In this document: one piece after another, positions 14,272 through 58,236 of the stretch
Layout of the letters: the number at the start of each line of letters is the position of its first letter
How positions within the stretch are numbered: the stretch's first letter is position 1
Source of the DNA: Escherichia phage CMS-2020a
Reading direction: 5' to 3' (one strand)
DNA length: 64,000 nt
Sequence record: CP053388.1
The notes under the pieces: generated by a model
What the model was told of the DNA's origin: nothing
What the model saw: the letters and a program-made list of their open reading frames with translations, nothing else
Databases searched by the model: none
Made by a program: the position numbers and the translations under genes

Positions 14272-15846
14272 TCACTCGTTCTCTTGAGTAGATGAGTCCC
14301 CATTCCCTCGGGGTTGATCTTGCCCGCTTTCTTGGGCTGCACCACGATAATAAGTAAGTACTGACTTATTTTCAAGGGTATTTAGATCATTTTTTGGAGG
14401 AAAATTCAAGAGATCTTTATCAAATTCCTTTTTCATCGCCTCAGTAATGTTCGGGAAAATCTTCTCAATAAGCATTTCCATCTGGTGACGACGTACAGAG
14501 TCCGGTGCCTGAAGTAATGACAGTTTCTCGGCAACAGAAAATTCATCAGTAAGGCCACGAATATCGAAACTTTCTGGATACGCAATTAAAGAGTGGTCTT
14601 CGTCCAGATCTGCCCCCATCCATTTCGCAACCAGTAGCATGATTTGGCGTTCAGCCCTTTCCAGACGCTCTGCTTTTGTGACAAGCAAGCTATTTACACG
14701 CTGGAAGTCATACATTTTTGCGGCACCAGATGAATTATCGATTCCCTGTGCGTTGTCCTGCTTCGTTCGCTCACCAGCTACACCAACTGAATGGTAGATT
14801 TCGTTAATCACCGTCTTAATCGTAGTGATGATCATCTGAGCTTGTTTCGGGTCTGGTGACAGATAAAACGGCTGGTTTCCACCTTCAGAATCGTAGGTGA
14901 AGACTCGCTTTGTGCCCATTTCAAGCACTTTAGTGTGGTTTTCATCACCAGGTAAAAGCGACTGTACCGGTATAGCCAACTGGCTAAATGTCTGATCCTG
15001 AATAATGGCATCAAGGTTTGACAGATAGTTTGCAACCGCACGATCAAGATAAGCGATATCATCGATCAACGATGGGCTGAAATACGGTGATTCACTTTCT
15101 CCAATACAATCAACAGGAAACACAGGAACTACGCCGAGATTATGCTCACCGCTATCCTCTAAAATAACTTTTGCCTGACGGCGACCTGCTCCACCAGCGC
15201 CCTTCTTCACTTCCTCACGGAACAGATACCACTCGTTTTGTGTCCACAGACGATAACGTTGGTATTCCTGACCTGTAGAAGTAAAAGGATCTGCGTCATC
15301 ACGAGCGACTTCCACAATTAACGCCCACAACATATTCCCGTCGTCGTCCCATGCCACATCCAGCATTTGCTGAGGTGAAATCCAGTAGGCGTAGGCGCGA
15401 GCATCTTTCTTTTTCTCGTCAGCTACTGACTCAACATCACCACTCATCGTGCTATCGACAACAACCCATATGCGACCGTAAATAGACGACTGCAAATCAA
15501 TAGCGGCCATAAATGAGTCAATAGAGGCATTCTGGCGAGTCGCACGTTTCCAGAAATTGCGGATCTGCTCTGGTGCCTCTTCGATATTTCTATGAATGTC
15601 TTCTTTAAAGAGATATTTGTTGATGAGGTTTACCACCTCACGAGTGTGGTTGAAGCGATAAGCACGTTCAACTCGCTCCTTAAACTCCTGATCTCCCTCT
15701 TTAAAGTAACGAAAGATATTGTCTGTAAACCAACCACGCCCGCCAGCGTAAGTGCTGGCGAGGAAGTCCCAATGTTCTTTTTTCTTTTCGTATTCCGGGT
15801 GGCGTCGCGCCACCAGATCCTTAATTTGTTTGTCGTTCAATTCCAT
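14272..15846 (-). CDS. Portal protein
   Basis: 524 aa ORF immediately downstream of the terminase large subunit; size and position typical. Confidence 0.7.
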   Translation of the reverse strand: MELNDKQIKDLVARRHPEYEKKKEHWDFLASTYAGGRGWFTDNIFRYFKEGDQEFKERVERAYRFNHTREVVNLINKYLFKEDIHRNIEEAPEQIRNFWKRATRQNASIDSFMAAIDLQSSIYGRIWVVVDSTMSGDVESVADEKKKDARAYAYWISPQQMLDVAWDDDGNMLWALIVEVARDDADPFTSTGQEYQRYRLWTQNEWYLFREEVKKGAGGAGRRQAKVILEDSGEHNLGVVPVFPVDCIGESESPYFSPSLIDDIAYLDRAVANYLSNLDAIIQDQTFSQLAIPVQSLLPGDENHTKVLEMGTKRVFTYDSEGGNQPFYLSPDPKQAQMIITTIKTVINEIYHSVGVAGERTKQDNAQGIDNSSGAAKMYDFQRVNSLLVTKAERLERAERQIMLLVAKWMGADLDEDHSLIAYPESFDIRGLTDEFSVAEKLSLLQAPDSVRRHQMEMLIEKIFPNITEAMKKEFDKDLLNFPPKNDLNTLENKSVLTYYRGAAQESGQDQPRGNGDSSTQENE

Positions 15847-46461: not shown

Positions 46462-47052
46462 CTATTTATTATAAACAAAACCAATATCTTTCTTGTGAGG
46501 CATATCTGCTGCTGAAAAAGCTGCGATCTTCGCGAGTCGATCACATATTTCATTTTCACGATGCCCGGCGTGACCTTTAACCCACTTCCAGCGAACATTA
46601 TGTCGACTTGCGGCCTCATCCAGACGCTTCCACAGATCAACATTCTTTACCGGTTTTTTGTCAGAAGTCATCCATCCATTGCGTTTCCACCATTTCATCC
46701 ACTGTGTCATGCCGTTTTTCAGATACTGGCTATCAGAGTGCAAAATAACGTTGCATGGATATTTCAAACGCTCCAGCCCGATAAGTGCCCCCATCATCTC
46801 CATGCGGTTATTGGTGGTGCTATGAAAACCATCTGAGAACTCGCGTTCCTCTCCACGATACTGAAGAACGATACCGTAACCGCCCGGGCCACCCGGATTT
46901 TTAAGGCAAGAGCCATCACTGAAGATTTTCACGGTTTTAAGCTGGGGATTGAACTCTACGACAGGCGTTGTGGGATTGGTGCGGGGAGAATTTTTGTTTT
47001 TGGCTTTTTTGCGAGTTTTCGCTTGCGATCGGGCTGGTGTCTTCGTCGTCAT
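46462..47052 (-). CDS. rnhA: Ribonuclease HI (start adjusted to MTTKTPARS)
   Basis: Strong match to E. coli RnhA ([75 protein letters not shown]) with a basic N-terminal extension. Confidence 0.9.
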
Positions 47053-47136
47053 ATAAACTCCTGAATCAAGCGCCGCGCCGATTTTTCCTCGCGCGTGCGC
47101 ACACGCGTGCGTGTTAATAATTATTAAAATAAACAA

Positions 47137-47635
47137 ATTACTTCCCAGAACAGGTTTTTATAAACCTGAACTGAACGAACGAAGTGAGTGAAGTTCACCT
47201 CGAACGAAGTGAGAGGTTGTCTTTTCAGGTAATACTCTCCCAGGGAGGTGAGTATAAAAATCTCTCACCAACCTGGTCGTTTCATAACCTGAAAAGTTAT
47301 GGTCTAAGTCTACTGCCAGCTTAGACTTGGGAAGTTATGGATGACAGCACCCCAGAACCGAGATCTTCCCACACTTTATGAAGGGGAGTACTGGATTCAA
47401 CCTCTCGAAACACCCCAGACTCGACAATCATAAAGTGACCCTTGTCTCTGCTCACTTTGGTTCCCCCTTCCCCGACACCTAAACGGCACCAGTTCTACGC
47501 TGGTAGTGAGCTTTTTTTAAACCTGACGCCAGTGACGCTTACCCCCACCCATCAGGTCGAGTCTCCAGTCTACGACTGGAAACTATCAGATCTTAGCACT
47601 TACAATTCACTTTATGAATAGTTTGTACTTATCTA
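47137..47635. other. About 500-bp non-coding region with several stem-loops and short direct repeats
   Basis: Direct repeat cgaacgaagtgag (x2), hairpin caggtttttataaacctg, long-range inverted repeat cttttcaggt...acctgaaaag; no ORF of 60 aa or more with an RBS. Confidence 0.4.
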
Positions 47636-47866
47636 TCATTGTGATTGATTATTTTCTCTACCATGTAGTTGAACATTCAAGGCAAACACCTCATTGATCA
47701 ACTCACCTAAAAGCTGTTCAACAAGTTCGCGATGCTCGCCAAGATGCAAGCACTTAATTGCCCATTCGTACAAGTTGAAAGCCTGCTCACGATCTTTCAT
47801 CATTTCACGAGCCTGGGCCAGAAAATCGCTCTCTACGAGCGCAACGACATTAGTCGGGTATGACAT
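47636..47866 (-). CDS. Hypothetical protein (start adjusted to MSYPTNVV)
   Basis: RBS AAGGAAA before ATG at 47866. Confidence 0.45.
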   Translation of the reverse strand: MSYPTNVVALVESDFLAQAREMMKDREQAFNLYEWAIKCLHLGEHRELVEQLLGELINEVFALNVQLHGRENNQSQ

Positions 47867-47952
47867 GTTGGTTTCCTTAAAGTGGTTCATAAAATCGATT
47901 TTAAAGCGTCTGGGAAGGGGTTCTAGTGGATTCTGTAGTGATGTTCAGGTCT

Positions 47953-48020
47953 GGAGTCTCTGATACAAAGCTGCCTGCTTCCGTATATTAATAATTAATA
48001 TGTAGTTATTTATATATACA
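47953..48020. promoter_or_regulatory. Imperfect palindrome, copy 2
   Basis: gcctgcttccgtatatt...atatatacagaagcaggc; near-identical arms to the 17868-17922 copy. Confidence 0.5.
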
Positions 48021-48051
48021 GAAGCAGGCTAATTACAGACGCCAGAACAAA

Positions 48052-48645
48052 CTAAGCAGCCTTCTTTGATGGTCTTTTTTTCCTGATCACATTCGCAGGA
48101 TCATACCCTCCCAGACTTTTCATGACGTCCAAAGGGATCTTGCTTATAGAGTGCCCAGCGTCCTGACAGAATCCTCGAAAAACAACGAGCATACTGCCAC
48201 CTGGGTTGATGTTTACTTCTACCTGACCCAGATTTACGTCAGGCTCGACAAACGCTACGCGGCCACCAGACAGAATAATCGTCTCATTCGCACACTCTGT
48301 TGCACGCTCATACCACTTTGTATCTAGGGATTGAGGAATTAGCATCACTGTTGTAACTCCACGAGCCTGCTCACGTATAGCCGCATCAATCCAGGGGGAG
48401 ATTTTGGAGTAGGGTGGATTGAGGAAGGCAATTGTACCTGGCTGTCCCCATTCAGATTTCAAAGCATCACGCTCAACGCCTATGAAATTAGGCAGCTTTG
48501 CATTGTCCTTGTTGCAGGCAACGTCAACATCAAATGTCACTCCAAGATAACGTTGAATGGCAGAAAACAGCCAGTCAGGTGTTCTCCAGAGGTCACGAAG
48601 AGAGTTGTCGCGCTTTCGCTGTTTGATTTTTTCGGCTGCAATCAT
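48052..48645 (-). CDS. dam: Phage-type DNA N6-adenine methyltransferase
   Basis: WRTPDWLF and FLNPPYS motifs in a 197-aa protein typical of small phage Dam-family enzymes; motif B at 48655-48677 upstream. Target sequence not determinable. Confidence 0.8.
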   Translation of the reverse strand: MIAAEKIKQRKRDNSLRDLWRTPDWLFSAIQRYLGVTFDVDVACNKDNAKLPNFIGVERDALKSEWGQPGTIAFLNPPYSKISPWIDAAIREQARGVTTVMLIPQSLDTKWYERATECANETIILSGGRVAFVEPDVNLGQVEVNINPGGSMLVVFRGFCQDAGHSISKIPLDVMKSLGGYDPANVIRKKRPSKKAA

Positions 48646-53480: not shown

Positions 53481-53651
53481 AAAAACCTCACAAAGATAAG
53501 TAACCACTTATTCATTGCGTGAGTTTACATTTATTGAGAGAACAAGACCAGACAGATAAAAAAATGGTGGCCATAGGCCACCAAAAACGAATAGTTGTTT
53601 CAGAAATTTAACGCGCCAGCGCAATATACACAGATAGATAACTACCTACAA

Positions 53652-54521
53652 TTATTTTTTGATCATTCCGTACATTGCTGAGGCTTTAGCTTGCTCAACA
53701 AAGGAGGATAAATCGACATCACTATAGGTTGGAGACTTCAGAATCTTTCCATCGGAAATTCGAAAACCGATCATCTTATCGGTGCCATCAGCATGGCGAA
53801 ATCCCAGGTCAGAAGAGTCGTATTTGCAGTTGGCCACAGCATGGCGACGCTCTTCGGCATCTGCAGGCCATAATTTTGTCATGTTGGACCGATGAATTTC
53901 GCCAACCAGCTCGACGACATTGATACCGAGAAAATCAGCCAGTCGATAAGTCATCATGCACGCCACATAGATTTTGTTCATTACACGGCGCAGTTCCTGA
54001 ATCAGCTCAGAATCCTTAACAGTCTTCTTCTCAAGTTTATCTGCCAGCTCTTCGAGCATACATGACGCCTCACGAGCTTCCTGAAATGGCATTGCCATAT
54101 CATCGAAAACAGTGTTACCAGGCACAAAAATTGTCTGCATAAAGCGATCAATGCTCTGTTCCTGCGTGTAATAAGTCATGCCGGTAGAAATACCACCTTT
54201 GATGGCGACCATCGTACCAACACCAACGTATAAAAAGTCGGCCATTGCATCCAGCAGTTGCTCAATATCCCCATTCATTGCGGCTGGAATACCTTCCACT
54301 ACAGCTTCTTCATGAATCAGGCTTGCACGGAGACGAAGCAGCTCTGGTGTCGGCATAACGCGTCTCGGATGCTGGAAGAGTTCATGAAACTGATCGACCA
54401 TCTTGTAAATACTTTCAGTGGCTACACCATGGCCTTCATGCAACTCATATGGTTCTGGCTTAAATCCAATGAGTCGATCGGTGGCAAGTTTCAGGTGGTC
54501 AGTCAGTTTGGTAAAGTTCAT
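53652..54521 (-). CDS. MazG-like nucleoside triphosphate pyrophosphohydrolase (tentative)
   Basis: 289 aa with EExxE...ExxD-like segments (LIHEEAVVE...DIEQLLDAMADFLYV), apparently duplicated; weak. Confidence 0.4.
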   Translation of the reverse strand: MNFTKLTDHLKLATDRLIGFKPEPYELHEGHGVATESIYKMVDQFHELFQHPRRVMPTPELLRLRASLIHEEAVVEGIPAAMNGDIEQLLDAMADFLYVGVGTMVAIKGGISTGMTYYTQEQSIDRFMQTIFVPGNTVFDDMAMPFQEAREASCMLEELADKLEKKTVKDSELIQELRRVMNKIYVACMMTYRLADFLGINVVELVGEIHRSNMTKLWPADAEERRHAVANCKYDSSDLGFRHADGTDKMIGFRISDGKILKSPTYSDVDLSSFVEQAKASAMYGMIKK

Positions 54522-58163: not shown

Positions 58164-58236
58164 GTATCACCAAATAAAGAGGGCCACTAAATATAGTGGC
58201 CCATGTTAATAGATAAGTACTTACCTATCAATGAAA

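Follow-up and report, generated by a model that had tools for sequence, protein, structure and literature searches.

Several described systems come close to the locus treated here. In ColE1 plasmids, the RNA II preprimer starts from a promoter several hundred nucleotides (nt) upstream and forms a long folded transcript with G-runs and a connection to RNase H. In lambda gene O, iterons, an A-rich tract and a hairpin follow one another in that order, and PAJU2 has the same order, each phage with a hairpin of its own. Large structured RNAs such as GOLLD, ROOL, OLE, raiA and HEARO, which are carried by (pro)phages and mobile elements, span hundreds of nt, contain many covarying helices and have a biochemical function that is unknown. 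The immunity RNAs of P1/P7 (c4), P4 (CI) and N15 (CA) are ~80 nt long, processed, and act through complementary repeats. Here we describe an intergenic element at positions 47137–47635 of a 64,000-nt stretch of DNA from Escherichia phage CMS-2020a (record CP053388.1; this whole stretch is referred to as the window). A first-pass annotation, made from the sequence alone and giving no strand, had proposed that the region is either a structured non-coding RNA (ncRNA) or a lytic origin. The first of these is strongly supported by minus-strand covariation, a promoter of the element's own and RNA sequencing (RNA-seq) of lysogens, and the second has circumstantial support. The region is a non-coding RNA gene of ~440 nt, which our analysis assigns to the minus strand, with predicted ends and its own sigma-70 promoter with an extended −10.

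A conserved and folded RNA gene

Relatives of the locus were gathered using the RNase H protein encoded beside the element as a probe, which yielded 71 SSU5-like viral contigs, and 37 metagenome contigs were added later. The region matches SSU5-like phage-plasmids, among them Escherichia phage PhiR41_1 (98% identity), Cyrano (97%) and Salmonella phage SSU5 (87%). When 6.5 kb around the locus was aligned with seven relatives, positions 47153–47552 proved to be 87–98% identical, compared with ~70–80% in the flanking coding DNA, and the edges of this conservation island are sharp (at ~47560 and ~47140). The element is under stronger purifying selection than the protein genes that flank it. A lack of conservation in related genomes had been named in the first-pass annotation as the finding that would speak against its proposal; the region is instead an island of 87–98% identity. 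The element was found in 687 PLSDB plasmids, whose hosts are Klebsiella, Escherichia, Enterobacter, Salmonella, Citrobacter and Cronobacter. Of 5,426 complete E. coli genomes, 232 (4.3%) carry it, and there it is nearly always plasmid-borne and unannotated. A divergent second clade, comprising a Cronobacter sp. JZ38 plasmid and the viral contigs L164, L176, L235, L261 and L186, is only ~68% identical, yet can be aligned end to end. The metagenome scan contributed its 37 copies and no new clade, with 10 matches due to chance, and when the RNase H protein was searched against genome contigs, all matches were to chromosomal rnhA genes, which was uninformative for the locus.

The multiple hairpins and nested inverted repeats reported earlier are borne out by a repeat search, which found 19 inverted repeats within 47000–48100, and by folding energies. 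For 47100–47640, folding of the minus strand gives a minimum free energy of −188.5 kcal/mol (z = −5.6) and folding of the plus strand one of −154.4 kcal/mol (z = −5.0), i.e., 5–5.6 standard deviations better than dinucleotide shuffles, none of which (0/100) folds as well as the native sequence on either strand. Covariation across relatives, a check that had been suggested at the outset, was assessed using RNAalifold on 13 representatives from both clades, and within-clade counts were made on 59 unique SSU5-clade sequences. Among the 13 representatives, 29 of the 101 predicted pairs have changed on both sides with pairing kept, and 99.0% of the cells in the predicted structure are standard pairs. 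Both controls gave far lower numbers: column shuffles contained 15.0 ± 2.6 double-change pairs, with 0/500 shuffles reaching the observed values, and a slid control, in which the 3′ partners were moved by 1–3 columns, contained 2–4. Most double changes separate the two clades and therefore represent few independent events, although they affect 29 different pairs and the others are unbroken. Independent compensatory events also occurred within the SSU5 clade. Across the 59 sequences, pair 47326–47302 is GU in 32, GC in 19 and AU in 8, a series that is possible only on the minus strand; pair 47325–47303 is CG in 41 and UA in 15; pair 47509–47452 is UA in 32, CG in 19 and UG in 8; and pair 47556–47522 is CG in 42, UA in 12 and GC in 4. 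About ten pairs are predominantly G-U on the minus strand. As these would be A-C mismatches on the opposite strand, the folded molecule is the minus strand.

The predicted promoter (47590–47618, minus strand) is of the sigma-70 type, with a −35 of TTCATA (47618–47613), a 17-nt spacer and the extended −10 TGCTAAGAT (47598–47590), and it places the transcription start near 47583. Conservation is poor across the 60 nt upstream of the island, apart from the invariant columns G-T-n-n-T-A-n-n-A-T, and the extended −10 TGnTAnnAT is present 39–46 nt before GATGGGTGG in 51 of the 52 distinct upstream sequences, in both clades. On the plus strand, a simple consensus scan, which is weak evidence, found a single promoter-like site (47577–47606), and this points out of the element. 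A canonical intrinsic terminator was not seen at the 3′ end of the element type in the window. Transcription can be read from the data for Cyrano, a phage-plasmid of E. coli LF82 that is 96% identical over the element and has a 44-amino-acid (aa) open reading frame (ORF), CYRAN_81, annotated inside it. In RNA-seq of Cyrano lysogens, CYRAN_81 reached 117 fragments per kilobase per million (FPKM), whereas the upstream ORF had 9.5 and RNase H had 8.4 (PMC9928086). The same contrast was present in all five conditions, and it puts the element 12–14 times above both neighbours and close to the repressor gene, which had 96 FPKM (PMC9928086). The RNA therefore accumulates independently of the adjoining genes in lysogens. 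In these data, by far the most abundant Cyrano transcript is CYRAN_43 (OV696614 40268–40822), which is labelled a hypothetical protein and reached 7,084 FPKM, or 723 times background (PMC9928086). It adjoins the integrase and repressor genes and may be another non-coding RNA.

That the region holds no protein gene, as had been claimed, is confirmed by comparison. Eight short ORFs (30–59 aa) exist mechanically in it, and each is frameshifted, stopped or without a start in 17–57 of 59 unique homologues (DNA identity of at least 87%). The earlier failure to find a tRNA-like signature agrees with ARAGORN, which found no tRNA or tmRNA gene in the whole 64 kb. In the RefSeq record of SSU5, RNase H is annotated as 765 nt (L001 4415–5179), running ~65 nt into the conserved element; this long call and CYRAN_81 of Cyrano look like ORF-calling artefacts over an RNA gene. 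Compensatory structure, an own promoter with evidence of transcription, and the lack of a conserved reading frame are all found here, as is generally asked of a structured ncRNA.

The fold is a conserved architecture of about a dozen helices. The structured body of ~440 nt (47137–47583, minus strand, as are all the features below) has a 5′ end predicted from the promoter and an uncertain 3′ end. It begins with a hairpin (47561–47583) that is variable in sequence and kept in structure: pair 47582–47562 is CG in 23, UA in 17, AU in 10 and UG in 9 sequences, and pair 47577–47567 is AU in 28 and GC in 24. A long hairpin with the invariant sequence GAUGGGUGGRGG and with CUGGCRUC (47520–47558) has 13 predicted pairs, of which 4 are compensatory, with all cells paired and with invariant G-U pairs at 47549–47531 and 47545–47535. 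The next domain (47450–47511) is closed by GCUCAC/GUGAGC, where 3 of the 6 closing pairs change on both sides, and inside it are a hairpin that varies and a purine run that is almost invariant, GGGGAAGGGGGAACC (47473–47459), whose G-run is conserved in both clades. A long irregular arm (47372–47437) follows, with the invariant internal loop UUGUC/CCCU and the conserved apical CGAGAGGUUG; Cronobacter-type sequences swap most of the stem pairs of this arm for other Watson-Crick pairs, while both loop strands are invariant. Two hairpin domains (47371–47328 and 47326–47302, together 47302–47371) have 3 and 5 compensatory pairs, respectively. The region after them (47221–47301) has two mutually exclusive pairings, namely a local hairpin (47301–47295/47289–47283) and a long-range helix (47296–47283/47234–47221). 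Both enclose the hairpin 47279–47237, and each has a compensatory change between clades; that these alternatives are a conformational switch is speculation. The invariant single-stranded elements of the fold are GAUGGGUGGRGG, the purine run, the internal loop, CGAGAGGUUG and two hairpin loops.

The gene map agrees with the earlier placement of the element between the RNase H gene and the Dam/exonuclease genes, all on the minus strand. Downstream lies the RNase HI gene (46462–47052; Pfam RNase_H, E = 1e-44). Upstream, the stop codon of an 84-aa ORF (47636–47890) adjoins the edge of the element, and a Dam-type methylase gene (48052–48645) lies beyond this ORF. All genes around the element are on the minus strand, and they make up DNA-metabolism operons. 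Along the direction of transcription, the order is SbcCD-like nuclease, RuvC-like resolvase, ribonucleotide reductase, thymidylate synthase, DHFR, ATPase, 3′-5′ exonuclease, Dam-type methylase, 84-aa ORF, the element, RNase HI, and TerB-like and other small genes. In SSU5, the operon downstream of the element includes the Ant antirepressor. The functional unit consists of the promoter region (47590–47636), the RNA body (~47583 to ~47137) and associated downstream features to ~47090, so the boundaries first given (47137–47635) do contain the element, while the associated features extend slightly past the left edge.

A palindromic box, ATAGATAAGTACAAACTATT (47617–47636, minus strand), lies directly 3′ of the stop codon of the 84-aa ORF and overlaps the −35 of the RNA promoter. 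Four copies of the box, ATAG(A/G)TAAGTAC..ACTAT, are present in the window (14350–14369, 47617–47636, 53634–53653 and 58209–58228), compared with 0.08 expected. Those at 47617, 53634 and 58209 are just after or beside the ends of minus-strand genes, and the copy at 14350 is inside an ORF; after the copies at 53634 and 58209 comes a GC hairpin with a U run. The box at 47617–47636 is probably a regulatory site and a candidate operator, and the repeated box suggests an operator or intercistronic regulatory site that the DNA-metabolism operons share. Farther upstream, between the Dam gene and the 84-aa ORF, there is a large hairpin (47973–48029) with 16-nt arms (94% complementary) around the AT palindrome TATTAATAATTAATA; an AT palindrome at 47115–47131 resembles the one enclosed there. 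This hairpin may be a terminator, promoter or operator.

RNase H, by which the region was first framed, is directly downstream here and is not obligatory, as Cronobacter-type and some Klebsiella relatives have an element in this slot with no RNase H downstream. Distant Klebsiella SSU5-like plasmids, in which the 84-aa ORF is 44–50% identical, have kept the order of Dam, small ORF and a gap of ~570–650 nt. In 30 Klebsiella plasmids, this slot holds a different structured RNA of ~450–480 nt (type B; L267 2780–3260, and L268 and L270–L273), the element in the window being type A. Type B is highly conserved, with 17 compensatory pairs among six sequences, and upstream it has a similar palindromic box (TAAGTAAcaatTTACTTA, at the equivalent place) and a similar promoter. 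It has no Rfam matches. In three plasmids (L270, L271 and L273), the downstream gene is convergent to it. Homology of the two types could not be demonstrated: nhmmer with its filters off gave no match, and the shared motifs are short and lie on different helix strands. We treat them as different RNAs in one slot. Because RNase H is absent or the next gene is convergent in relatives, the slot is that of an RNA gene in its own right, with RNase H a frequent but dispensable neighbour. In a distant SSU5-like plasmid of Moellerella wisconsensis (L269 2840–4150), the slot is occupied by a 113-aa ORF and an unannotated gap of ~970 nt, and then comes a type I restriction gene; the ORF and the gap match nothing, and the gap is unlike either RNA type.

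The twin hairpin and its core in other phages

Toward its 3′ end, the RNA has twin hairpins (47167–47217, minus strand), ACCUC-UCACUUCGUUC-GAGGU (47217–47197) and UGAACU-UCACUCACUUCGUUCGUUC-AGUUCA (47197–47167). Their loops are the two copies of the direct repeat that had been noticed in the first pass, a 13-mer, CGAACGAAGTGAG, whose copies at 47176–47188 and 47201–47213 are exact. This repeat is not due to chance, as the copies are conserved in relatives. Neither strand of the 64 kb holds a further copy with up to 2 mismatches, the ~45 kb of the phage-plasmid outside the window not being covered by this search. The second stem, UGAACU/AGUUCA, is GAAACC/GGUUUC in the divergent clade, which amounts to 3 compensatory pairs, and the loop in that clade is UCACAUUCGUUC. 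The 17-nt hairpin core is CUC-UCACUNCGUUC-GAG, and the first hairpin is preceded by an A-rich tract of the AAAGACA type, GAAAAGACAA.

The flank downstream of the twin hairpins (47090–47166, minus strand), as read from the sequence, combines an A/U-rich palindromic hairpin (47168–47151), an AT-rich stretch (47140–47114) and a 24-nt tract, CACGCACGCGTGTGCGCACGCGCG (47113–47090). This tract, which is prone to form Z-DNA, is a perfect alternation of pyrimidine and purine just upstream of the ribosome-binding site of RNase H. Among relatives, the AT-rich part varies in sequence and is constant in composition, and the CG tract is conserved. The flank may be part of the RNA, of an origin or of the RNase H promoter.

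Viral contigs were scanned for CTCTCACTNCGTTCGAG, and the figures given here rest on the matches listed. Besides SSU5-like contigs, the hairpin core was found in at least ~45 distinct other contexts. By itself, the number of matches is little more than chance would give for a 16-mer in so big a set of contigs, and the case therefore rests on stem covariation, multiple copies and initiator context, which together show that most matches are genuine. At the first four positions on either side of CTC/GAG, Watson-Crick pairing is seen in 72%, 64%, 48% and 44% of the matches listed, compared with 25% expected by chance, and several contigs have more than one copy (four in L303, and two or three each in L276, L342 and L178). 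In at least 10 contigs (L178, L274, L275, L281, L306, L307, L312, L323, L324 and L328), the core CTC-TCACTNCGTTC-GAG is in frame in initiator genes. There it encodes [PSTA]-L-T-[TS]-F-E in nine contigs and HSHSVR in L275, at residues ~136–193 of initiator proteins of ~230–440 aa, in an inter-domain linker, which is where the origin of lambda is situated in gene O. According to PHROGs, the motif-bearing initiators come from different families (O-like, DnaD-like helicase loader and replisome organiser). Although the genes are unrelated, the motif does not vary among them even at synonymous positions, and it comes shortly after short tandem repeats or A-rich tracts, which argues that the constraint acts on the nucleic acid. 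The match of L170, L178 and L205 to the 21-mer lies in a 442-aa ORF and was taken as real because of the three copies in L178, their covarying stems and the in-frame initiator position.

Similarity beyond the hairpin is marginal, with L307 sharing CGCGCGAGG (z = 4.0) and L279 sharing AAAACC..GGGAAGTAA (z = 3.0); CGCGCGAGG or (CG)n also comes after the hairpin motif in L307, L178, L312 and L322. A-rich tracts before a hairpin are present in lambda (CACAAAAGACAC...AAAAGAAAAAAGAAAAG), in PAJU2 (TAAAGACAGTAAAGACAAT) and in L274 (ATAAAGACAGGAAAGACAT), and the 17-nt core itself is absent from lambda, mEpX1 and PAJU2. BLAST of a 31-mer against phage records lacked the sensitivity needed to locate the motif in named phages. 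None of twelve loci carrying the motif has a match in Rfam, and a literature search by motif sequence found no description of it. Overall, the hairpin core appears to be an origin-associated motif that is common to several phages and was not previously described.

Two further settings of the core were seen. In a GC-rich phage (L303 5169–7321; see also L276 2570 and 5270), each copy has a GC hairpin with a UUCG loop before it and (TAAC)n runs of stop codons after it; this arrangement resembles an intergenic cassette. In T4-like Aeromonas phages, the near-perfect core GTCTCACTACGTTCGAG lies in intergenic DNA that bears no annotation; the genomes have 1–4 copies, most of the records listed having 3, and in Aeromonas phage CC2 (L343 1160–1230) one copy adjoins a homing-endonuclease gene. 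These near-matches brought the PeSL cassettes of T4-like phages into consideration, but PeSL sequences are generally phage-specific.

Possible functions of the RNA

We tentatively favour a role in replication, in which the RNA may act in replication initiation of the phage-plasmid as an origin-associated transcript. We favour it because of the origin-type hairpin, the A-rich and AT-rich surroundings, the invariant G-runs, the position within DNA-metabolism operons and the usual adjacency of RNase HI, and we hold it as a serious possibility that falls short of an even chance. The 3′ domain would present two copies of a hairpin that is found elsewhere at the right edge of lambda-type origins in initiator genes. 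Transcription into this hairpin module, aided by the invariant G-runs, would leave an RNA–DNA hybrid, which could open the duplex, be trimmed to a primer, or both. The RNase HI gene that is usually immediately downstream would serve this hybrid or primer step, and the folded 5′ body might position or stabilise the hybrid, as in the RNA II preprimer of ColE1 plasmids. The ColE1-like cues in the element, namely the G-runs at 47473–47459 and 47550–47542 and the adjacent rnhA-like gene, are only suggestive. A bolder form of this proposal, which we regard as doubtful, is that SSU5-like phage-plasmids initiate through a folded “origin RNA” of ~440 nt, instead of or besides a protein initiator, and that this RNA delivers or opens a universal hairpin module of origins. 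The 17-nt hairpin would then be that module, a replication signal common to different phages and recognised by a conserved factor of the host or the replisome, and the RNA in lysogens could also be a decoy against incoming phages that depend on the signal.

Several observations weigh against a role in replication. The hairpin motif is not exclusive to origins, as some copies are intergenic (e.g., in L283, in the early operon of a temperate phage group), L303 has four within 2 kb, and T4-like Aeromonas phages have the motif with one mismatch several times per genome. The element contains no iterons; its only tandem repeats are the twin loops, and its other short repeats covary as helix strands. 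No initiator gene surrounds the motif here, and the window encodes no O-like protein matching those of the motif loci. As no protein at all is common to the 64-kb window and the motif loci, the reader of the hairpin would probably be a host or replisome component, or the hairpin would act alone. The GC skew has no inflection at the locus, a test of little power since gene orientation governs the skew here. In addition, the promoter is active in lysogens, a state in which one would expect silence from a purely lytic origin, and the plasmids carry separately typed replicons in PLSDB (rep_cluster entries), which we take to be of the RepA/IncFIB type and to serve plasmid maintenance. Finally, Cronobacter-type plasmids and some Klebsiella plasmids have no RNase H downstream, and the type B RNA is without the hairpin motif.

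Somewhat less probable, and on balance unlikely, is that the product is a stand-alone, trans-acting RNA of lysogeny, regulatory or protein-scaffolding, with no part in priming. Such an RNA would explain why, in lysogens, the element with its own promoter is transcribed 12–14 times above its neighbours and about as strongly as the repressor gene, and why the downstream gene varies or is convergent in relatives. The different structured RNA in the same Klebsiella slot is as expected of an exchangeable accessory locus, and a fold this large and complex is typical of RNAs that function in RNA–protein complexes or as ribozymes. However, no canonical intrinsic terminator was seen at its 3′ end, no partner protein was identified, and the loop sequence is without an antisense target in the 64-kb window. 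The site in lytic DNA-metabolism operons and the origin-like flanks of the hairpins would also have to be coincidence. In one version of this explanation, the twin hairpins would be a decoy that titrates a hairpin-binding factor, by analogy with the lactococcal “Per” phenotype, which is a superinfection exclusion caused by an origin decoy.

A cis-acting 5′ leader is improbable. It would govern read-through to RNase H, the TerB-like genes and the antirepressor, with termination in lysogens and read-through in lytic growth, and could be likened to the leader or immunity RNAs of P4, N15 and P1 immI or to a processive antitermination RNA. The arrangement is suitable, since the element is on the same strand as, and directly upstream of, the operon that contains Ant in SSU5, and the RNA is abundant in lysogens while the downstream gene is silent. 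The exclusive pairings at 47221–47301 could provide a switch, and the twin hairpins are reminiscent of sites that proteins bind in pairs, such as nut sites. Nevertheless, ~440 nt of dense, conserved structure is far beyond what known attenuators need, and the downstream gene is not constant, RNase H being absent downstream in L161; these two points make a leader less likely. There is also no Rfam riboswitch, leader or C4 match, even at E ≤ 10, and no complementary target repeats were found in the 64-kb window. The type B element cannot be a leader, as the downstream gene is convergent in three of its plasmids.

Highly improbable is a purely DNA-level element (a protein-binding origin, or a recombination or packaging site) whose RNA is incidental. 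The direct repeat, the many palindromes, the AT-rich stretch and the alternating CG tract would suit such a site, as would the presence of the hairpin motif inside initiator genes elsewhere. The pattern of covariation effectively excludes it: compensatory changes occur across ~100 pairs, many of the pairs are strand-specific G-U, and repeats such as UCUGGGG covary with their partners and are not conserved in the manner of binding sites. The conserved promoter and abundant transcript also stand against it. A small protein (e.g., the 44-aa CYRAN_81) or a decaying pseudogene has next to no probability and is effectively excluded by the disruption of all candidate ORFs in many homologues, by the tolerance of 1–3-nt indels among homologues and by conservation that is higher than that of true genes nearby, which is the opposite of decay, even though an ORF is annotated at the same spot in Cyrano and some plasmid records.

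The locus matters beyond this phage, as SSU5-like phage-plasmids are widespread in clinical Enterobacteriaceae and are known to carry resistance genes (PMC9600943). Their most conserved stretch in this neighbourhood is the element, yet it is blank or mislabelled as a spurious ORF in the records. As an RNA gene, it would add a new class of large structured RNA to the few known in bacteria and phages. If the tentatively favoured role in replication is correct, the RNA would offer a handle on the switch between plasmid maintenance and lytic amplification, and a target for curing. The presence of one hairpin in unrelated initiator genes suggests a general origin signal that has not yet been described, and it makes the poorly understood “right arm” of lambda-type origins a testable question.

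Comparison with known systems

The Infernal/Rfam check that had been suggested was run and matched no family. Rfam 15 at the gathering score gave no matches in the whole window, and at E ≤ 10 on 46900–48100 only chance microRNA and snoRNA matches were returned. The families in which the element has no Rfam membership include GOLLD, ROOL, OLE, raiA, RNase P, 6S, group I/II introns, riboswitches, C4, RNAI and STAXI, and a literature search by topic found no description of the element. As all tests of membership in described families failed, the element represents a new RNA family and belongs to none of the known ones.

In general character, it is closest to GOLLD, ROOL, OLE, raiA and HEARO, with which it has in common the size of hundreds of nt, the many covarying helices, the mobile carriers and the unknown biochemical function. 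It differs from them in residing in Enterobacteriaceae phage-plasmids, in being expressed in lysogeny and in having an origin-type twin hairpin. With the immunity RNAs c4, CI and CA it shares expression in lysogens, a position upstream of an antirepressor operon and repeated short elements; in contrast, it is five times larger, has no complementary targets in the 64 kb and has no Rfam C4 match. Herpesvirus oriLyt transcripts (e.g., PMC11350156, PMC12203722) are likewise non-coding, lie at or near a lytic origin, have G-runs and possibly form an R-loop. They belong to eukaryotic viruses and have no homology to the element, so this is a conceptual analogy only.

The resemblance to lambda-type origins is in the order of parts, as an A-rich tract of the AAAGACA type is followed by a hairpin on the transcribed strand, and the 17-nt core of the element sits at that position in the 10 O-like or DnaD-like initiator genes of other phages. 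In the element, however, the hairpin is duplicated, and ~350 nt of covarying RNA structure lies upstream instead of protein-binding repeats. With the ColE1 RNA II preprimer, it has in common a promoter several hundred nt upstream, a long folded transcript, G-runs and the link to RNase H, and it too is on a plasmid-borne replicon, with an RNase HI gene directly downstream in most members. It differs from RNA II in that it has no sequence or Rfam similarity (including no RNAI match on 46900–48100 at E ≤ 10) and in that no antisense RNA I partner, nor in a simple consensus scan a promoter for one, was found. In function, RNA II and transcript-activated origins are the nearest parallels, and the likeness to RNA II is a functional analogy only. 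Considered together, the element is of known kinds, belonging with the large structured phage RNAs and possibly with RNA-dependent origins.

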